A stretch of 64,000 nt of DNA. It comes from Tricharina praecox. Lineage: Eukaryota. The notes under the pieces were generated by a model. It had not been told where the DNA came from, ran no database searches, and saw only the letters and a program-made list of their open reading frames with translations. Below are positions 16,242 through 58,600 of this stretch, piece after piece; within the stretch, counting starts at the first letter, position 1, and every line of letters begins with the position of its first letter. The DNA lies in NCBI RefSeq assembly GCF_024521635.1, contig NW_026250406.1:372001-436000 (forward strand), written 5' to 3'. A program made the position numbers and the translations under genes.

Positions 16242-16280
16242 CTATAATCTTAAAGGTTACAGTCACCGATTTCTATCGAA

Positions 16281-29929: not shown

Positions 29930-31275
29930 CCCTCATCTCTCCCGGGGCCTTGACTGTTCAGTGCCCTTGCCGTCGACTCGCCCTCTCCGTCACCTCTTCC
30001 GGCTGCATCACATCTTCCGTTACTTCACTAATCGGTGCGGTCATCTCTTCTGGCGCGGGCATCGCTTCAATGCCACCATCTCTTCAGTACCGTCCTCTCT
30101 TCCGGCGCCGTCATGTCTTCCGTGCTCCCACAACCCGTCTGTGCCCTCACCTCTTTCGTGCCGTTACCTCTTCCGGCCCGTCGACTCGTCCGTGCCGTCA
30201 TCTCTTCTGCCCCCTCCCACACTTCTGCCGTGCTCCCACCACTCTGCCGTGCTCCCACAACTCTGCCGTGCTCCCACAATTCTTCCGTGCTGTCACCTCT
30301 TGGCCGCCCTTGTCCTTGACTCGCCTTCTTCTGCTCCCTCGCCCTCGAGGTGGCCATTTCCTCAACTATTCCGGTGTCTTGCTTCTCCCAGGGCCCTTGG
30401 CTTGACCACACTCGCAGCTCTTCCGCGCCCTTGAGTCTTGACAGAGCCACTCCCTCGACTCTCCGGGGACTCTTGACTAGGTTACTTCCTCAACTCTTCT
30501 GGCGCTATCATTTGTTCCGGTGGAATCAAATCGTAGGCTCGGTAATCTCCCCCTTGCCGTCATCTCTTCAGTGCCGTCATCTCTTCCAGCTCATCAATTC
30601 GTATGTCCTCCCACAACTCTGCTGTGCTCCCACAACTCTTCCATTCTTTGACTGTTCCGCTCCCTTAACCTCGACTGGCAAGCGACCTAACTCTTCCGTG
30701 CCGTGGTCTCTTCCGGCCCGTGGACTCGTGCGTACTCCCACCACTCTTCCGTGCCGTCATTTCTTCCGACCCGTCGACTCGTCCATGCTCTCACAACTCT
30801 GCCTTGCTCCCACAACTCGTCCATGCGTCACCTCTTCCGGCCTGTAGCACCTGCCAGCATCTGGTACTCCACCAATCCACACATCGAACTCCCTATACCG
30901 ACGCATCGATCATGCCTTCTCCCCAACGGACTTCCAAGCCGTGAGCAATGCAGAAGATTGAGACGGCCGGCCCAAGAGACGGGCACGACCGCCACCTCGC
31001 CCTCACTCCCCACCGCCACCTTGCCCTTGTTCCCCACCTCCATTTCGCTTAGCCCTCGCCCTCGTTCAGCACTTCCACTCGGCCCCGTTCCCCACCATCA
31101 CCTCGCCCTCGTTCCCAGCTTCGCCCTCGTCCTCGTTCAGCACTTCCATTTCGCCCTTGCCCTCGTTCAGCACTTCCACTCGGCCCGTTCCCCACCATCA
31201 CCTCGCCCTCGTTCCCAGCCTCCATTTCGCCCTCGTTCCCCGCCTCCATCTCGCCCTCGTTCCCCACCAGCTACG
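29930..31275. repeat. Degenerate minisatellite-like arrays
   Basis: Recurrent CTCTGCCGTGCTCCCACAA (19-bp, tandem at ~30225-30290), CTCTTCCGGCCCGTCGACTCGTCC and TCGCCCTCGTTC units. Confidence 0.7.
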
Positions 31276-36953: not shown

Positions 36954-37760
36954 TGTGCTGTACGAGTTGAAGTGCGGTGAGTGCGCGGCGATTGCGTAGT
37001 GTAGTGTAACAAGTGTGCGTATGTGCGGGTACCTGTGATATCATAGTAACAGCACCCGCCAACCATCCGGGGCCTTATATAGGACCCCATCTCCAACTCT
37101 CCCGTCGACCGGCCCGACAGCGGCAAGTGGAGGATTCAATTTTGCGTGCCGGAGACATGGAGATTAAGTTCATCCCAAGCCTGTCGAGATGAGGGAATTC
37201 GCTAGCCTTATTAACACGGGAAATGGCGGGGGAATGGAGGGTGCCTCGGCGCTCTAGAGCGTGATCCGGCGTTGCGGGTAGGTGCGGAGCGGAGCCGGAG
37301 CTACATATCGCGGTGGGGGATCAGCTGCGGGGTATGGGGTGAAACCTCGGCTTCAGATGAACCATCCATGCCGTGCGCTATATGCCATCGGCGATCTTGG
37401 CGATGTTTGGAATGACATCACAAATATACAAACAATCCTGGGCTTCGGAAAGTTTGGAGCCGGTGTTATTGAGGGTCCTTCAAACGATTTCGTGGAGCAG
37501 AGGTAACAATTTTTGAGAGAGATCACATCACCATGCGGAGCAATTGGTATGCCATGGCTATCAGACGGATAATCCCTTTCGATAAGCAGTAGTGCTTGGG
37601 CTTCACTGAAATAGACATTGCCATGTGTCCCACAAAGGCCAAAAACCCATGACTCGAACCACACACCCTCACCAGCAGTTGGAGACGAAAACACTATTGA
37701 CCGCCTTCCCGCTCAATGGATTCTGGAGTAGAGACGAAGTTGTAAAACAAAAGAAACAAC

Positions 37761-37832
37761 TGCCCTGGACCGGAATTGAACCGGCGATCTCGTCATTACG
37801 AGTGACGCGCCTTACCGCTTGGCCACCAGGGC
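37761..37832 (-). tRNA. tRNA-Thr(CGT)
   Basis: 72-nt cloverleaf GCCCTGG..CCAGGGC-A. Anticodon arm CGTCA-CTCGTAA-TGACG. GGTTCAATTCC T-arm. T runs downstream. Confidence 0.96.
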
Positions 37833-39435
37833 TAGTGTTGTTGATTGCCATGTACAGTGGCTATACACTAGCTGAAACAAACAACTGCATTCGTAGATCG
37901 TGCTGTGAGCCTAGAGTTCAACTGCTTGTGTGATGCACGCTTTTCCTTGGTGCAGAGTGAATGAAATATTTAACTCCTGTACTCCATCATCATCCCCAAC
38001 TGAGGGAAGTAAAAACGGGGTGATGCCCAGTGTACCTATTAAGCCCAATGGACTCTCATGATGAGCGCGGGACGGAAGGTGAAGGTCGAGTAAAGACACA
38101 GCAAGGCCGCATCGATCCATTCGGCTTGACAATCCCGAAGACAGAGCGGGTCGACATTCAGTCTTGAGAAACCCTCTAAGATCAATGAACGATTGTCGAT
38201 GTAGATGATAATTATTCCCTTCCACTGCAACCTCACTTCAACCTCATCAAGATTGCCCGGCATCTGTGATGACCGTTGCTCCTAATTTGTAGAACTCGGT
38301 AGGATCAGAAGCCGATTCCTGAGTTAGGCTGCAGTATGAAGACTCTTTTTTGTTTCATTCAGCCCATCTAAGCTATGGCGGCGTACTTCTGAATGATTCC
38401 AGTTTGAATGAACTCTTGTGTTTACTCATTCCCGTGCAGAACGAAGATTCTAAAATATTTGAGTGGCCATCCTTTCCGCTCCCTGAGTGCTAAGTTGTGA
38501 TCCTCCTCACTGTTTATCGTTCGCTTCCGTGAGCCATTCGAGCAGTGGCTGGGTGTGGTGGTGCATTCACCCGGGAATCCGGTCCATCATAGCGGCGATC
38601 CCGGATAACATGTCGTCTACGATACCCCGCTGCAGGACCGTGCCTGCAAGCCAGTGCAAAGGCTTTTGACGGGGACATCCTGTCATCCGATAACCTTCGT
38701 AACTGTGCGAGCGAGCTCCTCGCTTTCGATGTTCGCTTCCCCTTAATTTTGTTTACATCACTTCCTCCTGCTGAGAGCTGTCTGTTTTTGTTATTGTTTT
38801 TTTTGCGACAAAGCAGGCTGGACCAATAAGCACCCGGCGCGTGCCGTTTGTTATGTCTTTGGGGAGGCTGGGATCGCTGGGGCTGGTTGCCTCAGCGACT
38901 CGCGCCGCGCCAACACCAAATCAACAAAGCAAGGAACGGCCGGACGGGTTCCTGCGCGCTGGCCTGGAGGGGGCTGGCTGGTGGGTGGTGGGAGGTGGCG
39001 GACAGTGCTGGGCGGGAATATCATCACCATTCTCCAACACATCCTCCCCCCAACACCACACGAACACGTTCTCCCCACACAGTAGCCCCCTTCCTACTAT
39101 ATACTCTTCGCGATTATTACGCAGCGTGCTTCTGTTTTCTTTCTTTTGCATGCAAGGGCTTATTACTCCGCGTCGTTACGGCTGATATCACGGCCGCCTG
39201 AATCCAGACGAGAAACGAAACGAAACGCCATAGTGTTACACCCGCTTCCTTCCTGTCCTGACAAGTTGTAAGCGACCGCCCTGTCCGGGACATACTACCC
39301 ATTACCGCCACCGTTACCACTGCACCACCCCCAGACTTTACTCTACACACTCGACGAGAAGAAACGGGACCGGACTGCACTCTCTTTCTACACCTCCGAC
39401 ACTCACACGCTCGTGCCCGCGTCGGATCACCAACC

Positions 39436-41571
39436 ATGGCCGGAATGCAGCGCTCGTACAGCTTCGACGCCAACGACGACGACCCCTCGTACTATCCCCT
39501 CCGTCCCCAGCAGCAGCAGCAGGAGGCGGCCCACTACCACCAGCAACGGTCACAAGAACCACAGTTCTACGCCCCGCCGGTCGCGCAGCCACCAGTATAC
39601 CACCAGTCCCCTTCACAACACCACCAGAACTACCTATCCCCACAAGCACCACAGCGATATCCCTCGGACGTATCATGGGGCGAGCCACCGCACCGTTCGG
39701 TCTCGGAGAGCTCCATGTCCTCGGTGGGGATCGAGCACCAGCCCACCGTGATCCGGAAGTCGCTACCGCCTGCTGCAGCAGCGGCGGCCGCGGCCGCACT
39801 CCACGCCGTGCAGGAAGATGTCGCCCCGAGCCCGGTAGAACGCGATGAGCGGTACTGGGCACCGGAACTCGGGTATGCACAACGCGGACAGCCGGATGGC
39901 GCATACCCATATCCATCGCAGCGCTCGACGCCCGCGTCGCAAGCACCTCTACTTCCCGGTCCGCCTGCGCCCCCGGCACACGCGAGGGGTACCGGTAATG
40001 GCAACGATAGCCCCGGCGGTCGACAGCGAGTGCTGGTTGATCCGCTGCTGGGACAGTACACGGATAATCCGTACCAGAGGATGAGCACTACTTGGGATCC
40101 TGCGTTGAGCCAATCACAGTTTGATGGCGCGAACGATGTGCTGAGTGATGATGATGACGACTGGGGAAAGAAGGGCGGGAAGAAGGGGAAGGGCATGGGG
40201 GGGATTGCGGCGGCCACGGCCGGAGTCGGGGCCACTGGGGGCATAAAAGGTGGGGCGGTCGAGAGCGGGGGGTTGCTTGCGAGTGGGGCGAGGGCGGGTG
40301 TTAATGGTATGGACTCCCTTGGGCGTTCCGTGTTCGTCGACGATCTTGCTAACCCATAGCAACAGAAAAATCGGATTGGCTCCGCTCCAACGAAAACTCC
40401 TCCCGAAAGCGAAGACGCTGGGTCATCGGCATCATACTGGTCGTGATCATCGCCGGCATCGCCGCCGGCACCGCAGCGGGCGTCCTCCTATCCAAGCGCG
40501 GAAACAACAACGACAACTCCAGCGGTGCCCCCAGTGGTCCCTCCGCCGCAGATGACCTCCGCCAGAACGGTTTACTCGACAAAAATTCTGCAGAGATCAA
40601 AGCACTCATGAACAACCCGGACCTGCACAAAGTCTTCCACGGGATGGACTACACCCCTCTCGGTGGCGTGTACCCCGAGTGCCTCACATGGCCGCCGACG
40701 CAGAACAACATCACGCGTGATATCGCGGTGTTGTCTCTACTGACCGACAAAGTCCGCCTATACGGCACTGACTGCAACCAAACCGAGATGGTTCTGCACG
40801 CCATCGACGCTCTCGGCGTTGACATGACGGTCTGGATCGGCGTCTGGCTCGACGGCAATTCCACCACCAACACACGACAGCTAAACCACCTGTACACGCT
40901 CCTCTCAGACGAGAAGCACCATGACAAGTACGCCGGCGTAGCCGTCGGCAACGAAGTGCTCTTTGCCAAAACCCTCACCCAAACGCAACTCTTCAACATC
41001 ATCTCGGAAGTGCGCACAAACCTCACCACGCTTGGCTACAACATCCCTGTCGGCACCAGCGACCTCGGCTCCAACTGGAAAACGGAGATGGCGAGCGAGG
41101 TGGACGTGCTCATGGCGAATGTACACCCGTTCTTTGCCGGCGTAGTCGTGGAGAAGGCGGCGAATTGGACATACACCTTCTTCCAGGAGAACGATGTGGT
41201 GCTTACCGACGGCCTCAGCCCGAAGCCAAGAGTGATGATCAGCGAAGTCGGCTGGCCGTCCGGTGGTGGCTCCACCGGCGGCTCCGTCGCTGGAATCGAT
41301 GAAATGAACACTTTCATGGCCGACTTTGTATGCAAGGAAAATGCGCGTGGCACGGAATACTTTTGGTATCTAACCCACCCCTCACCCACCCTATCTCCGC
41401 GCCAATTGAGCAGCAGCTAATGGAAATGCGCGTAGGTTCTCGGGCTTCGACGAACCCTGGAAGATCCGCTACAACGAGCCAAAGCTTGGAAAGGAGTGGG
41501 AGGATAAGTGGGGCTTGCTCGATGTCAACCGGAAGCTCAAGAAGGGGTTGACGATTCCGGACTGTAAGTAA
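39436..41571 (+). CDS. btgC: Membrane-anchored GH17 endo-beta-1,3-glucanase, BtgC-like (exons 39436-40306, 40360-41365, 41436-41571)
   Basis: Disordered N-terminus, EKSDWL then a TM helix. [30 protein letters not shown] and FDEPWK motifs. Canonical introns. Confidence 0.9.
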
Positions 41572-42586
41572 TGGTAGGAAAATAGTGACGAGGGGCGGTG
41601 GGGTGGGGTGGGGTGGGGTGGGGTGGGAGATGTTGGGTGGAGTTGGCGTTTATGATTATTGCTTTATGATGAGATGGAAAGGAGAGGGGAAAAGAGAGCG
41701 GGGGAAGGGATAAGAATGGGGAGGATGTGGGGAGGGGAGGGGAGGAGAGGGGAGGGAGGCTGCATATACCTGTGTCTGTCATGTTTGGTTTGATGTGTTT
41801 ATGTTGCATTGCATTTTGTTTCGTGTATATGATGAAGATTTAATGATCATGTCAAAAGCTGCGTTGCCTTGTACGGGACAGTTCGTGAGGTGGTTACTGC
41901 GAGGCCTGGGTCAGGGGTGAGATGCTCTCCCCAGCATAAGAAGTAGAAGGCAACGCAACCATCGCATAACCCACTTGAGTTGAGTTGCACAACCCCTCCA
42001 TCCATACCTACATAATAACCCTTCAATACACCTCGCCAGTATATACGGGCCCTGCATCCACTCTACTATATCGTACATACCTGCCTGCCTGCTTCAGCTG
42101 TACCCCACGCGCACACAGAAAAACGTGCTGCCACCTTCATCTGCAACCTTCTTCTGCTGCATCAGCCAGCCAGCCTAACCACGTGCAAAAGATACCCACC
42201 GACATCCACCACGTCCGGAGGCATTACCCATCCGTCACTCGGGAGTCGGTATTCCGCTACCTATATAGCATTCCGTAGCAATCAAGCATCACCGATTCGA
42301 GCTAGTACTCTATGCACGTAGAGTACTTCTCACATGTATGATGTATCAAGACCCGGCACGGCGCGGATGACGTTCGACTGTGTTCTGACAGCCACCATCC
42401 CACCGATCCACCGGCAGCGGGTGCATAGCGGCCCGTGCCGGGTGACAGTGGGACGGGCGAGGCCTGATAAAGTTTGTCAGCCGATCGTGTACATTATTAG
42501 CGATGAAGCCCCTTACTAGAATCCTCGACTGTAAAATAATCGTGCTGCCTCGCAGAAAAGTGGGAAGTGGTTGAGGGCAAAAAGAA

Positions 42587-42658
42587 AGCTCTGACGCGGA
42601 TTTGAACCGCGGATCTCATCATTACTAGTGATGCGCCTTACCGCTTGGCCACCAGAGC
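42587..42658 (-). tRNA. tRNA-Thr(AGT)
   Basis: 72-nt cloverleaf GCTCTGG..TCAGAGC-T. Anticodon arm CATCA-CTAGTAA-TGATG. T5 terminator. Confidence 0.96.
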
Positions 42659-43256
42659 CTTGTACGGAATCCAAGCGGTTTTAGCGTATATGACATACTT
42701 AGTGGATTTCGCCAGCACCTCCGTATCGTCTCCAAGTCCCAAGCTCCGAGTGCTGGTCTCAAGATTCCCTCCCGCCAATATGTTGCCGCAGAAATCAGTA
42801 CAGTCAGTTGTCGCATACATGCTAAAATTAATCGAGGGGTCCTAAATTCAATCCACTTCTGCTACAACTAATTCAGGGATTCTATGTCATCATACAAATT
42901 CAATCCTACCATTCATCGATAAACAACCGTAGTTTCTAGCTTGGAGCTGATGGGAATATAACGATTGCTTTATAATCGAAGCATTGAGGTATGTGTTGTC
43001 TGTAGTCCTTGTCCGATCAAAATATTGTTATATGTACCGCCCTCATCATACTCTTTCCAGCCGTTTTATCGTGATTGTCCTACAGCGTTGGTGTGATATT
43101 CTATGATGACGATTAAAACGCGCAGATCGAGCTCTGGAAGCCGGCCGGTACATAGACAAGATCGCCACATGTCCCCCTGCAATCGCGCCCGTCAGGGTCA
43201 AAAGAGATTGCTCACGCGCGGATCTCTCGCGACGCGGGATGTCACCCAGCACAAAA

Positions 43257-43328
43257 AGCTCTGACGCGGATTTGAACCGCGGATCTCATCATTACTAGTG
43301 ATGCGCCTTACCGCTTGGCCACCAGAGC
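43257..43328 (-). tRNA. tRNA-Thr(AGT)
   Basis: Identical body to 42587-42658, with a T run immediately downstream. Confidence 0.96.
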
Positions 43329-43995
43329 AGTTAATGCCGAAGCTACAATCTACTCCATGTACATATCACTAGCCGCCGGCTTCCTTGCAAGCGCTATATC
43401 ACTCCACGGTTTCGGATCTCGGGTTCCGGCTTTCGGCTTTCAGCTTTCTCTAGATACGGCTCGCCGCCGTGTCGCTGCAAAATTGTCGAGTTGGCTGTTG
43501 TGGGCCAATGACATCGCTGCGCGGCCCTAAGTTCCGTTTGGTCGTTCGCGCTAGAGCTAGAGGCCTGGGACCTTGATGGCTTGACTTGGTCTGCCAGGGA
43601 AACAAGTGGACCTCGCTCGCGTGTTAAGATGGTGATGATGACGAGTTTCGCTGCGAACTGGGAGCGACCTGGAAGATAAGATGAGACAGGGAACTAGGAG
43701 GAGCAGGGGAGAACTGGAGGCCTTTGTTCTCATGGGTGTCTCCCTCTGCTTTATACCTTTTTTTTTCTCTTCTGATCTCCGTTGCACTTTGAATTCCCCG
43801 GTGTTGTTGCGCAAATCCCTTCCAGCCCGCGATCGCAGATCACTGCCAACCTGCGTCGTCGTCATCGTCGCCATAGACAATTCCCGTCTTATCACCCACC
43901 AGCCGCCGCATACATAGCACTTACATTCCTCGTACACCCTTATCTATCACCACCGCTACCGTCGCTACATACACCCATACCTCGAGAATCTTGCG

Positions 43996-46416
43996 ATGTT
44001 CACCCGCCGCCCCCGGCGCTCCTCCTCCCCCGCGGCGCCCTCGCAGTCCGCGCTCATCGCCGCCGCCTCCGTGTACAACCCACTCGCGGCGGCAGCCGCA
44101 GGCGCCGCCCTCCGCGATGCGACCGTATCGCCGCCGCCGCCAGAGCAGCGCACGGGGAGTATTCCCACGAAGCGCATGCTGCAGCGACGCGATAGCTACT
44201 CGTCTACTGCGTCGGATCCGCCAGCGGTGGGGATGGGGATGGGGATGGGGCGGAGGGGGAGTTCCGGCTCCCTCACACAGCGCAGGTTTAGGAATAGCCC
44301 GCCGCCGCCGGCGAGCGATGGCGCGAGAAGTCCTCCGCCGTCGTCGGTTAGGAGTTCCGGCAGCATGCGAAAAACCATGAGGAGTCCCCCGCCGCAGGAG
44401 GTACACGCCGCCGAGAGCTTGCGCGAATCGTTGCGACCGCAGAAGCATGAGACGAGGGGCGTGCTATCGCGAGGATCGCTACGTGGAGATCCGGATGTGC
44501 ACAGGGAGAGGCGCAGGTTTAGTTCTTCGTCGGAGTCCGAGGATGGAAGGGGGTTGGCGCCTGTGAAGCGGAGGCAGGACGCGTATGCTGAGTCGCTTGG
44601 GAGTTATGCTAGCGATCTGGACAGCATCGTGGAGGATGAAAGGAGGCAACAGACGAGACGCAGGAGGAAGAGTGCTCCCATCGTGGAGGAGGAAGAGGAG
44701 GAGGATAGAAGAAGGAGGGAGGATCAGGAGGATATCCGGCGGAAGAGGGAGGAGGCGAAGATGAGGCTTAGACGGGGTGAGGAGGCGGACGAGGAATTGA
44801 GGAAACTTCGCCAAGAGGAGGAGGAGATTAAACTTCGACGCGAGGAGGAGACGAGGCTTAGACGTGAGGAAGAGGAGATGGAGAAGAGGCGGGCCGAACG
44901 AAGGAAGACGTTATCATTACTCGAGTCGCCGCGCATCGCGCAGGAAGAGGTCCAAGTGGTCCCGCGGTCACCCGCGCGCACGCACTTCGCCGGCACGACG
45001 CTTGAGGCACATCGACACTCTCCACCACCGCGATCGGTGAGCCCTGCCAAGAGCGCGCTGAAGCATCCCATCTCCGAGAGGGTTCCCGGCGATACGAGCC
45101 CGATTGCGAGTGACAGGAAGAGGACGTATGTACGTGTTTCGTTCTCGGATGAGGAGAGTGTTGTTTCTTTCTCACATTCAAGGCCGCCGGCCGTGACGGT
45201 GGATGAGCTCGCGCCAAGACCGGGACTACCGGTGTTTGGGAGTGTCAAGGAGAGGGATATTGCGGCTGAGATGGAGACATGGAGGAAGCGTGAGACGACG
45301 CTGGTTGAGCCAGCGCCTCCGGTTGCTGCAAATGGGGATCCGATTTCCTTTGGGTCTGAAGCAGTGCCTGAACTGGTGTTGATCGAGCCTACGCCGATGG
45401 AAGAGAAAAAAGAGAGTGTGGCCATGTCTACGGTTTTTGAGAAATCGCCAGCCGCACCGCTTGAGACATCTGCGCTCACACAACAGCCCCTTCACCGCAA
45501 GCAAGTTGGCACTGTCTCGCTCCCAATAACGCCCGTGCCCGGATCCTTCCCAGAGACATCATTCGTACCGACCGCCGATGATGCAGCCAGCGATTCTGAC
45601 AGCTCCAGCATGTACGAAGATGCACTCGAGGACGTCACCCCACCGGCGGAACCTACGATGAACCCATTAATCGTCGCTACCACCCCCTCAGCGCCCCCGC
45701 AATCTACAGCTTCATCGCCCCCGCAATCTCCACGTCAAACCAATGCAGGCAACCGCACCCCCATTCCTCGGCCCCCTTCACCCCCGCTCCCGGCCAGTTT
45801 CTCCCTGCCAACCCCCACCCCCTCTCGCAGACGTTCCCTCACCCCACCCCCACGCCGCCGTTCCTCCCAGCGCCAAACCTCGCAGCCCCCTCGCCACGAC
45901 GATGACGACGACGACGCAGCCTCAGTCTCCAGTTTCCGCCGCGTCCACCCGCGCGCAACTTGCGGCTTCCGCAGCTCTATGCGCATTGCTGCTCCCATCG
46001 CTCCCGCGAGACGTTTCTCTGAAGACTCGAGCGACGAGGAAGCGGGTGGTGTGCGCCGACGGTTCGGCCTTGGTGGTGGTGGCGAGGGCAGGTCGTGGAA
46101 GAGTAGGTACGAAGACTCTAGCGATGACGAGGGGGGTGTAAGGCCCGTTACCGCTCGGAGTAGTGTGCGCCCCGCCACGGCAGCAAGTAGTCCGGGGAAG
46201 CTGAGGAAACAGAGCTTCAAGAAAACGTCTTCGGCGCCGATTCAAGGGGAGGAAGAGAAGACGAAGAAGAAGGGGTTGTTTGGGTTCTTGGGGGGGAAGC
46301 AGTCAAGAAAGAATCTAGAGAAGAGGAGTGAGAGTGCGGCATTAGATTCGGCGTTTCCCACTGGGGAGGGGGAGGCGAGGAAGGAAAAGAAGAGGTGGTG
46401 GAAGTTTGGGCATTAG
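43996..46416 (+). CDS. Uncharacterised 806-aa low-complexity protein with a charged coiled coil
   Basis: Long ATG ORF rich in S/P/R/E, with an RVSF motif and basic-aromatic C-terminal patches (KKKGLFGFL, KKRWWKF). Confidence 0.8.
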   Translation: MFTRRPRRSSSPAAPSQSALIAAASVYNPLAAAAAGAALRDATVSPPPPEQRTGSIPTKRMLQRRDSYSSTASDPPAVGMGMGMGRRGSSGSLTQRRFRNSPPPPASDGARSPPPSSVRSSGSMRKTMRSPPPQEVHAAESLRESLRPQKHETRGVLSRGSLRGDPDVHRERRRFSSSSESEDGRGLAPVKRRQDAYAESLGSYASDLDSIVEDERRQQTRRRRKSAPIVEEEEEEDRRRREDQEDIRRKREEAKMRLRRGEEADEELRKLRQEEEEIKLRREEETRLRREEEEMEKRRAERRKTLSLLESPRIAQEEVQVVPRSPARTHFAGTTLEAHRHSPPPRSVSPAKSALKHPISERVPGDTSPIASDRKRTYVRVSFSDEESVVSFSHSRPPAVTVDELAPRPGLPVFGSVKERDIAAEMETWRKRETTLVEPAPPVAANGDPISFGSEAVPELVLIEPTPMEEKKESVAMSTVFEKSPAAPLETSALTQQPLHRKQVGTVSLPITPVPGSFPETSFVPTADDAASDSDSSSMYEDALEDVTPPAEPTMNPLIVATTPSAPPQSTASSPPQSPRQTNAGNRTPIPRPPSPPLPASFSLPTPTPSRRRSLTPPPRRRSSQRQTSQPPRHDDDDDDAASVSSFRRVHPRATCGFRSSMRIAAPIAPARRFSEDSSDEEAGGVRRRFGLGGGGEGRSWKSRYEDSSDDEGGVRPVTARSSVRPATAASSPGKLRKQSFKKTSSAPIQGEEEKTKKKGLFGFLGGKQSRKNLEKRSESAALDSAFPTGEGEARKEKKRWWKFGH

Positions 46417-46732
46417 GTAATACGATCGGAGTGATTTGAGGCGGTATATGCTTTTCTGCGATGATAAACCATGAGGTCATCTAATTTACGTTCTTCTATG
46501 GATCTGTTACTTTAGTTTGATGTATCTTTTGTAGTGAGGCGCTGGGTGGACTTTGACTTCTATTTATACTTAGCGGGTGGGAATCATTTGGGAATGAGAT
46601 TTTTGATGTGTGATTGATTATGATCGTCTACATGTTTTACCATCAACGGTGTACTTGAAAAATGGATCACTTTATTTCATTACCATAAAATACGGAGCCC
46701 TCACATAACCCACTACATGCAACCGCCTATCA

Positions 46733-47952
46733 TCAAACCATCCTCTCTGCACCCTGCGGTGGTTGCCAAACCCCCTCTGGCCCCCTCTGGCCCGGCCTGG
46801 CCATCTCCAATCCCTTCTGACCGGCACCAGCCTGCTGTCTTCCAACCGAAACATTTCTCTCCTGTCTAATTACATGCAGTTTCAATCCTGGCGTGGAATA
46901 CATCAAATACAGCACCCTGATCAAACCTCCCACTCCGGTCACCAGCGGAATCAACTGTCCGGTACTGAGCGCATCATTGACGCGCGTGATGCCATTCCAC
47001 AGGATCAGAGCCTCAATCGCGGAGATGGACACGCCTAGGATGACGATACACAGGATGGGCGTGAACTTATGCACGACGGGAATCTGCACGTTCGGATCGA
47101 TAGCGTCGGCGAGCAGCCCTTCGAACCCGCCCTTCTTGCGGAGGCGGTGGGTGCCAACGAAGGAGCGATCGACGAAGCTGCTGCCGTGCTGCCAGCTGAT
47201 GTAGCCGAAGAGAGTAGTGAAGACTAGCAGCGCCAGCGAGCAGATGATCTTGTGCGTCGTGCGGAACCACGGCTTCAGCAGCGGGACTTTGATGAACATG
47301 AAGCCGTACGCCTCGCAGCCCGCCGGCAAGGGCTGCAGCAGGTTGACGTCTCTGAACCAGAAAAATGTGCTGTAGGCTGCGACCACGAAGTAGATCATGA
47401 AGCGGATCACACCGCCCCACGAGGTCTCCCCCCATTTGGACTTGTGCGTGGCTTGCGCAGAGATTGTGCACGACTATATATATATCACGCGCTGTTAGCC
47501 CTCCGATGCATACGTGCTGCTGTCCGTACACGGGTATATGCCAAACGTACACTTCCAACAATCTGCATGATGATGATGTACATTTCGATCGCGCGGGGTT
47601 TCGTGGTGGCGGTGGACAGTGCAATGAGAGCGATCGACATGGCGAGCGAAAACATGGTGTTGATATCCCTCATCCGCGTGAGGTTCTGCGTATGCATGAA
47701 ATTGCTGATCAGCGTGGACAGCCATTGCGAGTACAGTCCCAGCCGGATTCCGAGGCCGTAGACATCTTGGTTTCCCTCGAAGCCGCAGTTACCCGCCTCG
47801 TCCGGGGCGGCATCGGCGCCGGCGGCGACATCGGTGCCGGCTGCGACCCCATTGACGAGTTTTTGCGCGGTGGTCAGCGTGAGGAGGAAGGTAAGGGCGA
47901 GGGGGAGCAGGTGCGCCGAGCGCTGGAGGCGGAAGCTTGGTCGAGAACCCAT
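46733..47952 (-). CDS. Uncharacterised multi-pass membrane protein (exons 47952-47551, 47473-46733)
   Basis: Signal peptide, GNQDVYGLGIRLGLYSQW, several hydrophobic helices and STGQLIPLV. A GTACGT..GCTAAC..TAG intron joins the ORFs in frame. Confidence 0.82.
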
Positions 47953-48410
47953 AATGAGTTTGGAGCTCAACTCAAGGTCGCCGGGACGTGGGGCATATGT
48001 ACTCGTATATAGTCCTTTCGCTTCCCCCAAAATTGACACCGGTCATACCTTTAGTCAGACGTTTGATTCGGGCGTCGCATGAGCCTCCAAGTTAACTGTT
48101 CTCAGGCAACAGCCAAGTGTATGGATGCCGGATCATGGAGTGCTGTGAACTTCCTTTTGCTGTGGCGTTTATATGTATCCGGGGAGCGGCTGATGTCGTG
48201 TCGCACGCGCAGCTCGCCAATGGATGCAGCGTAAGTTCGAACGGGAGAGGTGCAGTCACTAGCCAAAAGTCACAGCCATACATGTGCCTGGGCAAGAGTG
48301 GGGCTGAGGTTTGATGGTTCTGACTGTGCAGAAGGCATTGATTCAAGATGGAAGGGATCACCGGTTTAATATTTGCTTGTTGTCAGCATTGAGGAATTTA
48401 TGGCATGTGC

Positions 48411-48455
48411 GATTCAAGAAAGTACGATTCAAGAAAGTACGATTCAAGAAAGTAC
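48411..48455. repeat. 15-bp tandem repeat x3
   Basis: GATTCAAGAAAGTAC three times. Confidence 0.9.
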
Positions 48456-49014
48456 GGACCGTGGGAGCCTAAGTTTCATGAATTGTTTGAGCAAGGGAAA
48501 CAGACAGCAATGAATTGAAGCTGACCGTAGGGGTCGGTATCAGGCCGTAGACAAGGGGCTTTGGCAATAGTGGCGGAAGCCGGGAGAACAGTGGGGGCGA
48601 GCCCGATGAAGCGAAGACGGTACATAACTGCAGAGTCGGAGCGTGTAACCCAAAGCAAGCGCAACTAGAGTGAAAGTTGAATGGATAATGAATGCACAAG
48701 CGTTATTAATAGTGTACTCTCTAGACGAGCGAGTGACCGCATGCGATGACATACCAATGTCGACTTCAGATACATAGCGGAGATTGGCTTGGAGTGGGCT
48801 TGGAGTTAGGGCTTGGAGTTAGGTGGAGGCCCTAATGGAGCCATTGAGCCTTGGTCGTTACATGGCCCGCCCAAATGCTTGGGATAGGCTCTTTGACGAA
48901 ATGCACGATCATGGCGATTGGAACTAAACGCATCCGCGTGACTTTTATTTGTTTTTTATACAGAATCTGACAGCAGAAGCCAGCCAACAAATCCACCACT
49001 GAACACCCTCCAAC

Positions 49015-49689
49015 TCAAGCTTTCGGTGTAGCCTCCTTCGGAAACCTCGCAAAAATATCCCTAATCTTATCAATCGGGGCGGCCATAAGTCCTGCCACAG
49101 TCTCCCACGGCGGGCGGTCAGGGGCGCTTGGGTGACTCCTCGTGGGCACCAGCATCTTCGTCCTCACGAAACTCTTCGCCAGTCCCGCGCTATCCCCATC
49201 CGTCGCCCCCGCCTTCAACGCCTTCTCCAACGCCGGCAAATCATGCTCCTCTTCCTCTATGATATGTTCCTTCACGGTGGCCATCAGGCTCTTCAACGTG
49301 CCCTCGAAGTTCGTGTCGGTCGGATACATGCTCTGGAACTCGTAGAGACGCTCCTTGATGTCCTGGTGCGCGGCTCGGTCTTTCGCGGCCATGGACTCGC
49401 CGCCAGGCTTCAGGTACTGCTCGAAAGCGGGGTAAACGATGAGTTCTTCGCCGATGCTGTGTCGTGCTAGCTCCCAGACGTACTGGTTCTGCCATCGGAT
49501 CTTCGTATCGACATCCGTGGCGGACAGGATGTTGTTGTAGTACGACTCGAGCTCGCGGTGGTCGTTTTTGATCGCGTCCGAGACGGTGGGGTAATCGGCG
49601 GTTGTAGCGAGAGAACGAAGCGCATTCCTGGGGAGACGATATGTGAGCGGTGCTCGCGGGGCGGCGCGAAGGGTTCGTAGGGCTTGCAT
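49015..49689 (-). CDS. Hemerythrin/HHE cation-binding domain protein, probable mitochondrial presequence
   Basis: DHRELE, ELARHSIGEELIVYP, HIIEEEEHDLP and PTRSHP motifs. Arg-rich N-terminus without acidic residues. Confidence 0.9.
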   Translation of the reverse strand: MQALRTLRAAPRAPLTYRLPRNALRSLATTADYPTVSDAIKNDHRELESYYNNILSATDVDTKIRWQNQYVWELARHSIGEELIVYPAFEQYLKPGGESMAAKDRAAHQDIKERLYEFQSMYPTDTNFEGTLKSLMATVKEHIIEEEEHDLPALEKALKAGATDGDSAGLAKSFVRTKMLVPTRSHPSAPDRPPWETVAGLMAAPIDKIRDIFARFPKEATPKA

Positions 49690-50133
49690 TGTGTTCTTGG
49701 TGTAGTTTTGGAGATATTAATCGTAGGTTTGTGATGATGATGGACATGGGAGGATACGGACGGAGAATGGGTTTATATTCCCTCCTCCCTCGAGGCCATA
49801 CACAGCGCGATGTCATGATGCCGTAGTTTGGAGGTCATCGTTACCTACGGGCAACTATCCGCGAGCGAATAGAAAAGTTCCAATTTCACAAGTCTGCTGG
49901 ATGAAGCGATGATCGAGAGAGAGAGAGGGCCTTACGAACGGATAACGTCATAACGATCGGCAGCGGGAAAATGCTCCAGATACGTACGGATACGGATAAA
50001 CCATGGAGCTTAAGATTAGCAGGACTCGCGCTGGATTCCTGCCGAAGCGTCGCAGTAATGGATGTTTTTTCTTTAATTTCTATTGGTCGGACATGTGAGA
50101 TGTGTAGCCGCCGAGTGCTTTAGTATGATTACC

Positions 50134-51623
50134 CTATCCTAACAAATCCTTAACATCAATATGTCCCTTCCTCCGCAATCTCACCATAGCTTCAGCTATC
50201 CTCTTGACACCTTCCTCAATCCTGGCTTCCTCTTCCCAAGCCAAACAAATCCTCAGTCCCTCCTCGCCACCCCCGCCCTCAAAAACCCCCACATGTCCAA
50301 CTACCAACTTCTCCTCCTTCTTCAATCTTTCCACCAGTACCGGGACATCACACCAATCCGGCAGGTCAAGCCACAAATACCACCCACCATCCCCTCTCCT
50401 CTTTACTCCCAGCGGACTGAGATACTTGCCCACCGCCTCGAGCACTACCTTATGTCGTTTTGAATATGTGGGAATCAACACATCCTCCAGAAAACTCCGC
50501 AACGTTCCCGTTGTCAGAAGATTCCACACACAGGAAGCCTCGAGTCCGCCCGCTTCCGCGCCTCTTCCCATCGCCTCCACGAACGCGGTCGTGCCCTGGA
50601 CCCACCCCACCCTGCAACCAGGCGCAACAAGCACGCTGAAATCGCCGCTTGAGACGGCGTTGCCGTAGTCGCTCCTCCCGGGAAGACTGGCATCGAGGAA
50701 TACCATTGGTGTTATTTGCGGCGAGGCGGCGTCCCATCGGAGGAAGTCGCCCGCGTCGTCGGCGACAATGAGCGCATCGTAGCGGCGCGCGAGGGACACG
50801 AGCTGCGTACGACGGTCGAGGGAGATGGTGCTGCCGGTCGGATCGCGGAAGGTCGGTGTGAGGTGGATTATGTGCCGGTATATTTTAGGGTATTTTGTTG
50901 GTGATTTGAATGCCTACTCCGCCTCGTTAATTATGGTCGGTGGGGGGTGTAGGAGATCGGGGAAGGAAAGCAGGGGAGGGGCAGGGTGTTTACATACGGG
51001 TCTTAGATTTACCGCCGCTGTAGCCCGCGCCTCTTCTTCGCACAGTCCCCGCTCTAGCGCCTCGATGTCGATACCCTCTTTATCTTCCGGTACGAACCGG
51101 ATCTTACTCCCAAGACAACAGTCCTCGAATATTGTTTTACATCCCCGTGGTGAAGGCGCAAGTAGCCACACGGAGCGTGTAAACACCGGATCCGAAAACT
51201 TTTGTAGGATCCCCTCGAGGGCCTGATATTTGCCTGCCGCGGTCAATTCTGCACATGTTGGCGGGTAGTCGGAGAGGGGGAGGGGAAGGAACCTGCTGTG
51301 ACGTAGAGCTCTTCCGCAGTAGCGGTAGTGTTGTAAAAGGTGTTTAGCCAGTCGGTGATGGCGGCACGGAGCGGGATGGAGGAGCAGAGGAGGGCGTCGG
51401 CGTAGGCGAAGGGGTCAGTGAGCACCGAGCGGCTTGCATAAGCGATAGAGGCGGCTGGAAGGAGCCGAGGGGATTGGCAGCATTTTTGGAGGTCGATCGG
51501 CGTTGAGATGGGCGGGGGAGGCGGCGGCAGCGGCAGCGGCGGATGGGGTGATGTGCGGTGTCTGCTGTAGGAGCTGGGGGAACTCGAGCGCGTGGAGCTT
51601 GAGCGTGTGGATGTTTTTGGCAT
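50134..51623 (-). CDS. Class I/II PLP aminotransferase-fold protein with a degenerate active site (exons 51623-51293, 51233-50998, 50913-50134)
   Basis: ELYVTAG, PTFRDPTG, ARRYDALIVADD, FSVLVAPGCRVGW, GGWYLWL and LRICLAWEE motifs. Two introns join three ORFs in frame. Confidence 0.8.
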
Positions 51624-52921
51624 GTTTGTAAGCGCCTGTGGGACGTTTCTGGAGATGTATATCGATAGCTGGAACTGGCAGAATGGATCTTCAGAAGGAG
51701 GGGAGAAGGGAGAAGGACGAAGAAGAAACCTTCTACATCATATGGTCCTCGTATCATATTCGTACATCACGTCAGCTCAGCCCACCATCTATGGGAGCTG
51801 CTGGCCACGGCCGCCGGCCAATCATTCGCACCACCCTAACACGATGGCCGTTACAGACATATGGTGGAGTGTACACACTGCGCTCACGGGCCCGGAAAAA
51901 CCGATGTGCCGTAGCGTTATCGGCTAGTTAGCGCGCTCGCGAAGAAAAAAAAAGTGAGCGTCGGCCGGTTGGACGTACCCGAAACAGCCAGCTCCAACGG
52001 TCCGGGAGAGAACGTGGGGTGATGATTTCGGCCCACCACGCCTACCAGGCCCCACTCTTGTCCGTTGCTGTACCTCTTATCACTCCCAGATTCGGGACCA
52101 GACACGGCCAGCTTCGTGCTACGTTATCGCCGACGCAGCAGCACGGCAGAAATAGCTCTAGATTGCGGGTTCTCCGTAGATACACTCCCGCGCAGGAGAG
52201 CCGTTTCATACGTTTCGAATCCATGAAGATTTACGGCCCGGAGCCCTTAGAAGAACCCGGATAGAGTAACGATAGGTGGAAAAAATCAATTCCCAGTCAG
52301 TGCAGAGTCGCAGAATCCCTTTAGATGAGACCTTAGAAGATGGTCTCACCTACCAACATACCTAGATACTCTAGGTACAAATAGCTGCATATCAGGATGC
52401 ACGACCCGAGCTGAGATCTCGGCCTTTCCATGTATCTACCCTACTACCACGTCTGAAACAATTTCTCGATAAGGCGAGATAAAGCGAGGCTGACCGGTAA
52501 CTCTTGCACGAAGCGAGCACGTTTTCGCAATATTCGCGCGTCTATCTGGGGCATAGAAACGTGGGGAGCTATATATACCGCGGACTGCTCTATCTAGCGT
52601 AACGGTAATGCCGAAGACTGATGACGATGCCACACCGATTGACATGCGAGTGAGAATATGTGCTATAGGACATCTACGGTACCGATGGTCATTGACGCCG
52701 ATTCGCTCAATCTATGAGGAGATGCTCATGAAAATATCGAAGTTGCCGAGCGATAAGGAAGCCGAACACCCCGACTTTCAGAGCCACGGTGAACACCGCG
52801 AGTAACAAATGAAATGATCTGTAACATCTACCGACGTTCACAACATTCGGCCGCCACAAAAACAAAACAAAAAAAAACTGATCAGGGCGCCCATTATTAA
52901 GCTCGCCTACCTGGCTTGGTT

Positions 52922-52993
52922 AGCTCTGACGCGGATTTGAACCGCGGATCTCATCATTACTAGTGATGCGCCTTACCGCTTGGCCACCAGAGC
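52922..52993 (-). tRNA. tRNA-Thr(AGT)
   Basis: Identical body to the other two AGT genes. T run ~45 nt downstream. Confidence 0.95.
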
Positions 52994-53678
52994 TAATCAT
53001 GTTAGACATTCCCTGTGGCGTTTATGAGGATACATCACCAGGCAGGCAGGCGAAAAGATCAGTCGCTGCGAGCCGCGCACCACATGGATATAGACGTTCC
53101 CAACCGGGCGAGACGCCCGGGTTTGGCGCAAGTACTCTCGCAAGCAGCTTTACTTCAAACTCTTATTCACCGTTAGATGTGTTGCGTGATTATCATTCGC
53201 AAAGGAAAAAAATTGTTATTGCGTAGTCACCATTTTCATTGCTCACGCCCCAGAGCCACCAGTAATTGTGAGTCTCCACCTTGTCTCCCACTTCTTTGCT
53301 CCTATGGAACCGTACGATTCGATGAGAGAAAGTAGCCAAATAGTGCGGTCACTACATGAGCGTTGGAGGATCCACTAGGTACTGGTAACGATGTGGAAAG
53401 CGAATCATAGCTATCACCTCAAGGCATCCTCTCGTCTACGGCAGTCCAGCAGCCTACGTAGCCGGGCTTTTTTTTTGTAGCCGGTCAGGTCTGCGAGGTC
53501 GCGCCTGTATATGCAACATGCGGCTTTCACCTTTGAGAATCGTTTCATTGGTGCCTATTCAAGATGCGGACAAGTATTGCGGCGTGAGATCAGTCAATGG
53601 TACGGTCTGGATAGGCCAGTGCTCAATAGACATGTGTGCCCAGTAATTTCAGCTCATGGTACTGTCTGTCATCAATCG

Positions 53679-53750
53679 GCTCCGGTGGCCAAGTGGTAAG
53701 GCGCGTCACTTGTAATGACGAGATCCGCGGTTCAATCCCGCGTCGGAGCT
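53679..53750 (+). tRNA. tRNA-Thr(TGT)
   Basis: 72-nt cloverleaf GCTCCGG..TCGGAGC-T. Anticodon arm CGTCA-CTTGTAA-TGACG. Confidence 0.95.
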
Positions 53751-54838
53751 TCAATATCAAGCATCGCTTTCCCGATGAAGATTTTTGATGCCTGCGTTTC
53801 TGGAGTTGATCTTTGCTCGAAAACTCTCATGATACGTATCACGCGTGGTTTTTAGTTTTACCCCGCATTCTGTTACGACGTGATTGTGAGTCGGTGCAAA
53901 TTGCACGCCCTGTGCAGGACCATGACGCTACGGTAGGACCATTACCAGATCTACCCGTCGTCACGGAAACTCAAAATGAATGTCGGTAGAATTTGGAAGA
54001 ATCTGTCGGGGCGTTACATGGTAGGGCGGTCGGCGAAGTTGTCCATCACTCCTCCAAGCTACCACTACGGACTGGGACATGCCATATCTACCCCAGTCAT
54101 CGCCGGTACTCCTCCGAAGAACCCAACAAGCTGTCAAAGAAAACAGTGTGAGCTTCGTTCGTATGGTGGGGCGGCGGGGCGGCGAGATTGTCCACGACTT
54201 ACACAGGCCATCATGAAGAATGAAGGACACGCAAAAAAAACACCGGCTCCTTGCTAAAACACTAGCCGTCACACCGGCTCGACGATGGAAAGGAGGTGAG
54301 TGAGTGTCAATTATTGACTCGGTCTAGGTGTTGTAGATCGGCTTGGCCTGCGACTATAAACCAACAGATCCTCGCCAAAAATATTCGAACTCGAACTGAA
54401 GGATCTGGATCAGAGAAACAAATTATTCTTCCTTCTCCCATACCTAGCTCAGGGTCCTCTCCCACCGTTGTGGGTGGGTGTATGTATATGTAGGGCTTTC
54501 TTTCTCTACCTCTCCCTGTGTGGGTTGGTTGGTTTCTGTAGCATGAATAGAGGAGTTTCATGATACCGCTGTTCCCGCTGATCCTGTAGCCCTTCCGCAT
54601 CGCCTTCCGCATCGCTTGGGACCCTTAATTCCATCCAAAGCATGAGATCCACCAGTGTATTCCGCGCGGTTAATCAGTCGTCGATATTCTCGAACTAGTT
54701 ATTGATAATCGCCAACCCACGACCCAGAGAGTACACGTTCTGTGAATCTCATTATCCGAGACAAAAATACTGCCTGTACGTGACAGGCGGAACGGCACAT
54801 CCGTACTGTTTTACCTGAACATGATTCAGAAATTCAAA

Positions 54839-54910
54839 AGCTCCGACGCGGGATTGAACCGCGGATCTCGTCATTACAAGTGACGCGCCTTACCACTTGG
54901 CCACCGGAGC
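54839..54910 (-). tRNA. tRNA-Thr(TGT)
   Basis: Identical to 53679-53750, in convergent orientation. Confidence 0.95.
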
Positions 54911-55279
54911 TGGTGCTGTTAAAGGTTTTTATTCAGTCAATATGATAGTAGAAATATGCAGCTGCTCAGGTACTCACAAACTTGAGGAGATTTGGTTTCG
55001 TGAGTGATTCTGGATGTCTAGCGTGGAACGAAACATTTTCGGTCAGGACACTTTTCTGCATCCAATATCTACCCCAATCGAAACTCCTATGTATATAGCT
55101 AGACTGACGAACGAAACAAGCTACCTATTTTCTGTCGAGAAAACAAGCGCAGGGCAAGAGCTGTGACCCCAAATCGTGGCATAACCATGCTCACTTGTGG
55201 TCCCAGGTTGGTGTATACCAATGCCCAGTCCAACCCTGACATTTGCGACCTTCCACCTCGCAGTAGCACATGGCAGCTT

Positions 55280-55656
55280 CTTACATGCACATCCCCGGCT
55301 TGCGCTCAGACGACGTGAGCGTGCAGCCCACGGCCTTCGGGAGCCGTTCCAGGATCACCTTCGCCTCGATCCTCTCGGTGGGATCGTACCGCAGCATGTC
55401 TCGCAGGAGCTCCGCGAAGTGTTTGATATCCATCGGCTCCTGCTAGTGCGGCCCATGCCCGAGCTTGTGCGTGATCTGCCATGACGGACCGGTGGTATGC
55501 GGGCAATTGTTGTCCCAAGTAGTCGCACATGATGTGCGTGATGACATCGCCGAGGTGCACAGGATGATAGCCGCCGGGCCTGTACAGCGCGAGGCACTCG
55601 GTTTCGATGTCGCGACACTTGTGGACTGGAGCTGCTGCGGCAGCGCTGGAGTCCAT
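55280..55656 (-). pseudogene. Internally deleted SRPK-like protein kinase relic
   Basis: N-terminal ECLALYRPGGYHPVHLGD and, in another frame, C-terminal FAELLRDMLRYDPTERI. The catalytic core is absent. Confidence 0.65.
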
Positions 55657-58600
55657 GGTGATCAGCTCGGATGGCGGTGAGCTCGGGAGTGACAGTACAA
55701 GAGAAGAGTATCACATCAGCATTCGAATGATGAATAGTGAACCGTTTAGAAGAAGGACCTCGTAAACCATGAGCCAAACACCAAACGGAGCCGGAGACCC
55801 AACAGGCTCGGACAAACAAAGAACCGAGCCGAGAAACAGACGTCAAAGTTCAAAAGACTGAAGAAACGAAACGAGGCAGAGAAGTCGGAACCGCACATCC
55901 ATACATCACATAATGATGCACGAGGGCCGAGAACAATAAGCCAAATCGACGGACAAAGCAAGAGTAAACCGAAACATAGAAGGACCGCCGGAGGCCGAAG
56001 GCTGGACACGAATTTTCTCCGAAGATAGAATCCTACCAAAGTAGCCGACTGGACACGAGCTCTCACTCACTCGCTCACTCACTCTGTACCGCACTGACGG
56101 TTTTTTTTCACATCCATTTCCGAAGAGACCCCATTTTCCCCCGACGCGCGAGCCAGAAACAGGGCCGCAGAGCCCGGGTGCGAGCGTGTCTGCCTTGAAC
56201 ATCACGTGACAAACCCCACCCTGAGACCGAATAATGTCGTAAATACCAGCGGATCACCACGTGAGGGTTGTCAAGGAAGCTTTTGTCCGGGCAGTCTTGC
56301 GGTCAACTAAACTGAGCACTCGGACTTTCAGGCCTTTGATCTTCTAGGAAATTTCGGCTTGAGCGGCACCTCTAGCGGCCCTCCGAGTGTGAGATCCGGT
56401 TGTCGAATTACGCAATGGTATGTAGAGTATGTCATGGATGATGGGCCTCGCACAGCTGTGGCTGTATCCCGGAATGGTGTTGCAGTCTTGACTCTTGTTC
56501 GTGTGGTGCTAAAGCCACTCAACATTCTCCTGCGTGTCTACCTATTCGGCCTGGGTGAGGCTGGTGCGTGTGGCTAGTACCAGCATAGTAGACTGTGGTC
56601 CTCACCATGCACCCATAGGTACACGGAAACGTTGAAACCGGTGTGGCGGAGTGATGGAGGAGCTATCTGCGAGAGGAGGAGCTGTCAGCGGGAGAAAACG
56701 AATGTGGTTAGGTAGTAGTGGGCATCAAGGTTGGCGGGCTTCAACGTTGGCGGCCATGGCGGGGTCTTCTTCTTCTTCTTCTTCTTTTCTTGATCATCAT
56801 CTATCAAATAGACGGCCAACCCCCCATCTCCTCTCTCTCCTCTGTGTGCGCTTCCTTTCTCGTCAGGCCTAGAGAGGCATTGGCAACGAGCCCTCGCAAA
56901 ACTGGCTTCACATCTTTCCGGCCGCAACAAAGGAAGTACTCCCCCCTAGGCCTCCTCATCTCCCCCTCTTCCACCCCTCTCCCTCACATCGGCCTCGCTT
57001 GAAGCAGTCGCCTCAATCGATAAAGTCACTGATTCCCGCGCTCCAGCTCGCCCAGTCCACTCCGCCATGGTTCGTTAAAGGTTGCACGCGAAACAAAATC
57101 GATGTCGCGGCTTACGTGCCGGTTCACGCTAGTGACTCTGGAATGGCACCGGAAAGACTCCCGCCCGCGCCTCAATCGTTGTTGTGGCAGATTTTCCCGA
57201 ACGAACACCTCAGCATCGATGCGTTCGGGACCGGCACGGGTGTTCGTACAATGATAAGTCCTGAACGTGTGTTCCCACTTGTGAGCCGACACCAGACCAC
57301 CACCCCGTACATACCGCACCGAGCCGTCTCGGTTAGTTTGAACTGTGGAATCACATCAGCCCTATTACATATACGCGCCGACCAGCCTCCAGGTCGGTTC
57401 CGATCGGGACCGGATGCGACTTGCGAGGAGGAGAGCCAAAGTGCTGTTTGGAGAAGCGCTGCATTTTTCATGCTGTTGGCCGCCGCTGCTGCTGGACTGG
57501 GCGGCAACGCATGGGCGGTGGACTCGATGCTGTTGGTTTGCGTGGATGCCCTCCTGCAGTTTCCGGTTCATGGGCGACGCTGCATACATATCATACCGGC
57601 AGATTCCATACAACATTTGCTAGTACTTGCCCAAGTACCCAAGTACCCACTCCACCGACCTACTCTACTATACATCCTAGGTACGGTATGCACCCCGCGT
57701 AGGAGTGGGCCGGTCGGCGGCACAGAACACATCCGGGGACGAGAGAGGTAGAGTACTCTACATACCTACTTACCTAGGTAACCATCTATCTCGCTCGATT
57801 ACATATTGCTGACGGACGGACGGCGGAACAATTTACCCAGCACACCGGTGCCTGCGCTGCGGGGAAGGATTGACGGAGGGTCTGGTCTGATTGCATGAGG
57901 GACGAGGGCGGATTCTTCGCCGCAGAACGAAAGGGACCACCCAATAGGTAATTAATGCCTTACAGCCGGAGATAGGTACCTAACTATCTATGATGAAGTG
58001 CCTGCAGCGAGAGCGAGCGGAGCAAGCAGAGCAAGGACTCCCGGGTGCTAGGTAGTTACATACGCGACGACGCTAGAGATCTCGGCCGGGATCGATGGCG
58101 GTCACGTCGTTCGTCGCTCGCTCGTTTCGCTACTCCACTACTATCTGTACTATGATAGGCAAGCTTTCTTCACGGCGAGGGAGATCGACTGCCCGGTGCC
58201 CACGAAGCGTAGTGCTTGTCTTTCGGCGTGATCGAGTCTCGGGGTGGTGGTTTCTTTTCCCCATAGTTATATACTCCGATCGGACTGCGAGTTCGTACGC
58301 ACTTGCAATCCGTGCTCGCCATCTCGACGACAGTTACATACCATCCCCCTCTAATCCGCAGAATCAGCGAATGGATTCGCAGGGACCCGTCTTGCCGCCG
58401 AGACCATCCTCAGGAAGGGTTGGATCGCTGGATGATTGGCCCGTCGCCACCTGCAGGCTGCTGCCGAATCCCAGCCAGTCCAGGCGTCTACGAGGCAGGT
58501 GATGGCTCGATGGGGGAAGGGGCCCCCTCCACCTGGCGGTAGAGTAGGTACTCGGTCAAGTTCCACAGCCAATCACGATGCGTTAGCCAGACCGACACGA

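Follow-up and report, generated by a model that had tools for sequence, protein, structure and literature searches.

The present analysis deals with 64,000 nucleotides (nt) of the cup fungus Tricharina praecox (NCBI RefSeq assembly GCF_024521635.1, contig NW_026250406.1, positions 372,001 to 436,000 of the forward strand). This whole stretch is the window in what follows, and all positions are counted from its first letter. It carries, within 17.15 kb, an island of six transfer RNA (tRNA) genes, all for threonine, scattered among protein genes. Two procedures, ARAGORN and the Rfam model RF00005 at its gathering score (29), were applied to the entire window, and they agree on exactly these six tRNA genes. 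Every one of the six makes a full 72-nt cloverleaf and matches the Rfam model from end to end (1-71 of 71), with scores between 62.3 and 67.9 bits. According to ARAGORN the anticodons are cgt in one gene, agt in three and tgt in two. The original prediction, drawn from the letters by a model, had located the same six genes and had asserted that every tRNA gene of the window is for threonine. Both statements stand: when the whole window was scanned with Rfam at a permissive threshold (E up to 1), no tRNA, intron-bearing tRNA or tRNA fragment was added, and no overlooked tRNA gene for another amino acid was found. It had also placed the genes on both strands, which is correct, with the proviso that five are on the minus strand and only one on the plus strand. 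The permissive scan returned seven other rows, all below threshold. One is H19_2 (E 0.96). The other six are matches of RF04354, the 'Plastid-ycf2' 5' untranslated region, one of them antisense to each tRNA-Thr gene, with 30-35 bits against a gathering score of 65.7; this model probably contains a tRNA-like element, and the matches carry no meaning at these genes.

Sequences within an anticodon class do not vary: all three AGT genes are the same, and so are both TGT genes. The classes are quite distinct, with 8 differences between AGT and TGT, including two compensatory stem pairs, 12 between CGT and AGT, and 13 between CGT and TGT. Going from left to right, the gaps that separate successive genes measure 4754, 598, 9593, 685 and 1088 nt. 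A run of at least four T is present within 50 nt downstream of five of the six genes; at the TGT gene that starts at 54839 the sole T4 run downstream shares the gene's final called base. To judge from these features, all six genes are predicted to be transcribed. Table 1 gives their positions together with those of the other features discussed below.

Table 1. Features of the window, tRNA genes first (aa, amino acids; ORF, open reading frame; LTR, long terminal repeat; L001 and L002 are loci of related taxa presented in the text)
Feature	Position	Strand	Evidence and remarks
tRNA-Thr(CGT)	37761-37832	-	ARAGORN; RF00005 67.9 bits; T4 run starting 9 nt downstream
tRNA-Thr(AGT), copy 1 of the close pair	42587-42658	-	ARAGORN, Rfam; T5 run directly downstream
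Spacer between the close AGT genes	42659-43256	.	598 nt; without similarity to L001 or L002
tRNA-Thr(AGT), copy 2	43257-43328	-	ARAGORN, Rfam
tRNA-Thr(AGT), copy 3	52922-52993	-	ARAGORN, Rfam; T9 run 43 nt downstream
tRNA-Thr(TGT), copy 1	53679-53750	+	ARAGORN, Rfam; head-to-head with AGT copy 3; T5 run 31 nt downstream
tRNA-Thr(TGT), copy 2	54839-54910	-	ARAGORN, Rfam; tail-to-tail with TGT copy 1
GH17-like glucanase gene, expressed	38731-41574	+	Pfam PF00332; spliced contigs; introns 40306-40364 and 41365-41434; synteny anchor
Expressed gene with 806-aa ORF	gene 43844-46592, ORF 43996-46416	+	Spliced contigs; without Pfam domain; synteny anchor
Expressed gene	46709-48190	-	Spliced contigs
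Hemerythrin-like gene, expressed	48982-49716	-	Pfam PF01814, E 3e-15; spliced contigs
Aminotransferase-like gene, expressed	50090-51700	-	Spliced contigs
Ty3/gypsy chromovirus nest	1-28085	.	Pfam, self-comparison; continues past the left end of the window
Apparently intact Ty3/gypsy chromovirus	15553-22921		Two 689-nt LTRs, 100% identical, TG..CA ends

Such a concentration is far above what random placement would bring about. The densities of tRNA genes used in this calculation are those of relatives and not those of T. praecox itself: the genome description of Pyronema confluens gives 605 predicted tRNAs in 50 Mb (PMC3778014), and a survey gives a mean of 146 tRNAs per 39 Mb for Pezizomycotina (bioRxiv 10.1101/2020.05.11.088658). 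With the first value 0.21 tRNA genes are expected in 17.15 kb, with the second 0.064, and the Poisson probability of finding six or more is 9e-8 and 9e-11, respectively. Even after correction for how many intervals of this size a genome contains, by multiplication, it does not exceed 3e-4. If threonine is assumed to account for 4-7% of tRNA genes, the probability that the remaining five would all be for threonine too lies between 1e-7 and 2e-6. Chance is excluded as an explanation of both the density and the single identity of the island.

The surroundings of the six genes tell another part of the story. Flanks of 50 nt were aligned, flanks of 600 nt were submitted to a sensitive search with 7-nt words, and the window was compared with itself (at least 80 nt, E < 1e-10). 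Neither the 50-nt nor the 600-nt flanks show similarity outside the 72-nt genes, the sole long match between the 600-nt flanks of the close AGT copies being the overlap of their flank windows. The self-comparison revealed no repeat of at least 80 nt with E below 1e-10 in the segment from 31.3 to 64 kb, repeats being confined to 1-31.3 kb. The claim that the flanks are unrelated and that the genes do not form a tandem array is thus borne out. A tandem tRNA array is indeed rejected, since no unit containing a spacer is repeated in the island, and a recent tandem duplication of the AGT pair is rejected as well, since the spacer matches neither outer flank.

Many eukaryotes have tRNA-derived repeats, as the survey of Bermudez-Santana et al. 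recalls (PMC2888827), and the six copies might accordingly be members of a dispersed family of pseudogenes or of short interspersed elements (SINEs), when they are not simply the outcome of chance co-location or of an artefact of assembly. A tRNA-derived SINE is rejected: the 600-nt flanks contain no common body or tail unrelated to tRNA, and the window contains no partial copies. Nothing is common to the six loci beyond the ends of the tRNA, all six display complete cloverleafs on the full Rfam model, and degraded copies are missing from the window. The exact AGT tRNA sequence has only five matches, at three distinct loci, in a metagenome collection; a high-copy SINE-like family, an objection that the original prediction had raised against itself, was therefore not found. 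As to assembly, a DNA sequencing run (X1, possibly the source sample of the window itself) provides near-identical contigs over every one of the 30 bins that make up 37000-56000; among these contigs, 52965-53708 and 53722-54867 each bridge neighbouring tRNA genes. Because these contigs both cover and bridge the island, its assembly is supported. Together with Poisson probabilities of 9e-8 or lower, these observations largely refute the idea of a repeat family, a coincidence or an artefact, to which we give hardly any credit.

The five matches to the AGT sequence also give access to related fungi. They were retrieved from the metagenome collection as loci L001 to L005, with 2 kb of flank on each side. 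L002 and L005 come from one related taxon present in two samples, while L001 comes from a second taxon. The order of genes in L002 and L005 is a GH17-like gene, one tRNA-Thr(AGT) and an orthologue of the 806-aa ORF; with reference to the window, the GH17-like gene is about 80% identical in nucleotides (86% in protein, by tblastx) and the 806-aa ORF 73% identical in nucleotides. L001, with 75% nucleotide identity to the window and 68% to L002, has a single tRNA-Thr(AGT) located 585 nt upstream of the ORF that corresponds to the 806-aa ORF; the 973 nt beyond this tRNA gene are free of any further tRNA. At the same intergenic gap there are two AGT genes in the window, versus one in L001 and one in L002/L005. 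Since the relatives hold one copy and the window two beside the same genes, the AGT site must be old and its copy number must have changed.

The geometry of the gap is informative. The distance of the relatives' single AGT gene to the left-hand gene is that of the AGT gene at 42587 (whose distance to the GH17-like gene equals that of the single L002 copy), and its distance to the right-hand gene is that of the AGT gene at 43257. Towards the 806-aa ORF, the latter is colinear with the single AGT gene of both L001 and L002, as witnessed by conserved patches at 43546-43622, 43759-43794 and 43833-43863. The window has the layout of a relative, plus about 670 nt, that is one tRNA and the 598-nt spacer. 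On this comparison the gene at 42587 would be either an extra copy or a survivor with respect to the two related taxa. The L002 contig is 21.8 kb long, with 18.4 kb extending towards the position of the AGT gene at 52922, and it contains just one exact AGT match; an identical third copy appears to be missing from this contig, unless the layout differs there. Finally, the five loci of the relatives carry the AGT tRNA at 100% identity, despite a divergence of about 25% in coding DNA. Because this sequence is identical across taxa, the identity of the AGT copies within the window is a sign of constraint and gives no clue to their age, in agreement with flanks that do not align.

We consider that the island is probably an identity-homogeneous cluster of tRNA genes, which local duplication and loss have built up around a conserved tRNA-Thr gene. 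In this scenario the island would have begun from an older tRNA-Thr(AGT) gene, conserved in position, and would have grown through repeated small local duplications of tRNA genes, accompanied by losses. Selection on the tRNA, possibly with gene conversion, would prevent genes that share an anticodon from diverging, but not their flanks. The mixture of anticodons might result either from shifts at the first base of the anticodon (isoacceptor shifts) that followed copying, or from the copying of genes that were already distinct. The outcome would be six independent genes transcribed by RNA polymerase III, representing three isoacceptors and sitting in the gaps between expressed protein genes. 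Their role would be the supply of tRNA-Thr, and their grouping by amino acid a by-product of the birth of tRNA genes rather than a device. Local copying, one of the interpretations put forward initially, fits the two AGT genes versus one at the orthologous gap as well as the lack of an identical third copy in L002; the co-regulation and the insulation that had been proposed beside it find no support in the sequence.

Several observations weigh against this reconstruction. No remnant of a duplicated flank was found beside any copy within 600 nt, so that the mechanism of copying is conjectural. With 8 differences between AGT and TGT, and 12-13 between CGT and either of them, any anticodon shift must be old or did not take place in this cluster. 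The difference between the AGT pair and a single gene amounts to one event, and with three unrooted taxa its direction may be either gain or loss; deletion by recombination between 72-nt direct repeats could allow loss in the relatives. Furthermore, the comparison of synteny covers the AGT pair. To this should be added that the RNA-like contigs of three sequencing runs (X2, X3 and X5) do not cover the tRNA genes, though they are uninformative for small RNAs.

How unusual is this arrangement? The island is genuine but fairly ordinary, clusters of tRNA genes for the same amino acid that result from local copying being known in many eukaryotes. To present it as unusual was an overstatement, the more so because clusters with the same amino acid and mixed anticodons are known in other eukaryotes. 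In the survey of Bermudez-Santana et al. (2010), homogeneous clusters are said to dominate in Tetrahymena, Monosiga and drosophilids, local duplication is the prime suspect for their origin, and they are described as dynamic between species (PMC2888827). As in these clusters, neighbours in the island are for a single amino acid (6 of 6 for threonine) and are more clustered than random placement would make them. By contrast, the definition used there requires neighbours to be less than 1000 nt apart, and just two of the five gaps of the island are so short (598 and 685 nt); the others (1088, 4754 and 9593 nt) exceed this limit, with expressed protein genes between. By this spacing rule the island would be made of two homogeneous pairs and two single genes. 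The pertinent passages of that survey discuss no filamentous ascomycete. Literature searches on the clustering of nuclear tRNA genes in Pezizomycetes or in filamentous fungi brought up mitochondrial papers and general surveys only, while the supplementary matrices of PMC2888827 (74 genomes), which stood outside the search, may hold fungal data.

Drosophila clusters, as reported by Rogers et al. (2010), provide another parallel. When clusters are defined over 100 kb, a single identity was found in 34 of 58 cases with one neighbour and in 7 of 23 with three, and nearly half of the clusters hold at least two anticodons, a mixture ascribed there to shifts of the anticodon in the wake of duplication (PMC2997554). 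A comparison across eukaryotes attributes 39 of 44 isoacceptor shifts to first-base changes (Rogers and Griffiths-Jones, 2014; PMC3923123), and both accounts describe a conserved core alongside fast turnover. The island falls within the 100-kb definition with at least three neighbours and likewise combines one identity with mixed anticodons. It differs from the Drosophila clusters in that an anticodon shift would be a supposition here, AGT, TGT and CGT being separated by 8-13 further positions. Another comparison is that with the tandem tRNA arrays of Entamoeba and those of Arabidopsis (tRNA-Cys and other repeat units), where many tRNA genes also occupy a short stretch. The whole unit including the spacer is repeated in these arrays, whereas the island repeats neither spacer nor flank. 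If formed by local copying, the island would be a clean fungal example of tRNA families that grow around conserved founder genes, and the orthologous AGT site, with its difference in copy number, would make a handy marker for the turnover of tRNA genes in Pezizales.

It may be asked whether the island illustrates a rule that applies to the genome as a whole, T. praecox or Pezizales at large sorting many or all of their tRNA genes into islands for single amino acids. The Thr island itself may be an indication of this kind. The 605 tRNAs of P. confluens, a number roughly four times as large as the mean of 146 for Pezizomycotina, would fit an expansion of families by local copying, and such sorting overlaps in its mechanism with the growth by local duplication that we favour. 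The remaining metagenome loci point the other way. L003 and L004 correspond to another locus with a tRNA-Thr(AGT) gene, which belongs to a related fungus and was recovered from two samples, once on a contig of 102 kb and once on one of 46 kb (99.98% identity over 4072 nt). This is the only other AGT locus seen in a relative, and it stands alone: there is no further tRNA within 2 kb on each side, nor any similarity to the flanks of the window. Nor did the literature searches bring to light any fungus described as having its tRNA genes arranged in this way. Genome-wide sorting seems to us, all in all, doubtful. A bolder version, with one 'home locus' for each amino acid that gathers all its isoacceptors in T. 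praecox and perhaps across tRNA-rich Pezizales, the Thr locus, with a core conserved in position beside the retrotransposon nest, being selected as a chromatin domain of RNA polymerase III and its factor TFIIIC, strikes us as very improbable; if true, it would amount to an organising principle of the genome which has not been described for filamentous fungi.

Selection might also operate locally. The grouping would then have been retained as a chromatin barrier or a TFIIIC hub that shields the genes on the right from the nest of retroelements on the left, or as a unit under common regulation that supplies the tRNAs for threonine decoding. tRNA genes are reported to act as barriers to heterochromatin in budding and in fission yeast (PMC2040200, bioRxiv 10.1101/412247). 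One side of the island is indeed occupied by a nest of retroelements that measures at least 28 kb, and one tRNA-Thr site has been kept in position in two relatives. As with the yeast barriers, the tRNA genes of the island are beside one edge of a repeat-rich block. A difference is that the nearest tRNA gene is 9.7 kb away from this edge. Barriers of this kind occur at centromere 1 of Schizosaccharomyces pombe and at HMR of Saccharomyces cerevisiae; the centromeric groups of tRNA genes of the former mix amino acids, and HMR is flanked by a tRNA-Thr gene.

The insulation from the retroelement nest that had been conjectured at the outset receives no support here. The nest ends at 28085, hence 9.7 kb before the first tRNA gene (37761), and the self-comparison detects no LTR or retroelement piece within the island. 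Long ORFs between nest and island, together with RNA-like contigs at 37000-37633, would be on the wrong side of a barrier, which moreover requires no particular amino-acid identity, and copy number differs between relatives. The retroelements themselves have long ORFs and 100% identical LTRs without a drop in GC content, and show no sign of silenced, mutated heterochromatin. We regard a grouping maintained by selection as unlikely. Were sorting by amino acid to be a rule of the lineage, it would offer a tractable system in which to follow the selection of RNA polymerase III clusters as chromatin domains; nothing found here demands it.

The protein genes that surround the tRNA genes were delineated by mapping contigs over 37000-56000, X2, X3 and X5 being taken as RNA because their contigs are spliced. 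The spliced RNA-like contigs of these three runs define five expressed genes within the island, and the tRNA genes are truly separated by protein genes, as had been stated. The segment 52216-56000, which holds the three rightmost tRNA genes, is almost devoid of RNA-like contigs. The GH17-like exon 40608-41363 is 100% identical to an NCBI protein of T. praecox, and the next-best matches in named relatives are those in Trichophaea hybrida (84%), Geopyxis carbonaria (74%) and Tuber (74-75%). On grounds of similarity the window is nuclear DNA of a pyronemataceous cup fungus (Pezizales). Relatives of the 806-aa ORF turned up in no group but Pezizales (among others in Pyronema, Ascodesmis, Tuber and Morchella). 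It carries acidic and Gly/Met low-complexity runs, and the protein deposited for it has 725 aa, covering 90% of the ORF; the start or an intron may have been modelled differently. In contig depth, a rough guide to expression only, the gene with a hemerythrin domain exceeds all others of the region by a wide margin in the three RNA-like runs (594, 3023 and 87), its neighbours having tens to hundreds. A link between the cluster and Thr-rich neighbouring proteins was considered and rejected, the threonine content of four adjacent ORFs (2.8-10.3%) being unremarkable.

As for the nest, its apparently intact chromovirus has LTRs at 15553-16241 and 22233-22921; its gag ORF extends over 16281-18284, and its pol ORF, which comprises reverse transcriptase, RNase H, integrase and chromodomain, over 18485-22090. 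This element is apparently very young, and an inverted copy of it, 96.7% identical, is found at 4158-9415. Neither a drop in GC content nor a loss of reading frames points to repeat-induced point mutation in the nest. A connection between retroelements and tRNA-Thr is rejected: for none of the three tRNAs does the window contain a primer-binding site complementary to its 3' end, and the island is free of LTRs and retroelement pieces. Between nest and island, at 29454-31257, ORFs of 170-215 aa that match no Pfam family contain direct repeats of 81-165 nt with 75-81% identity.

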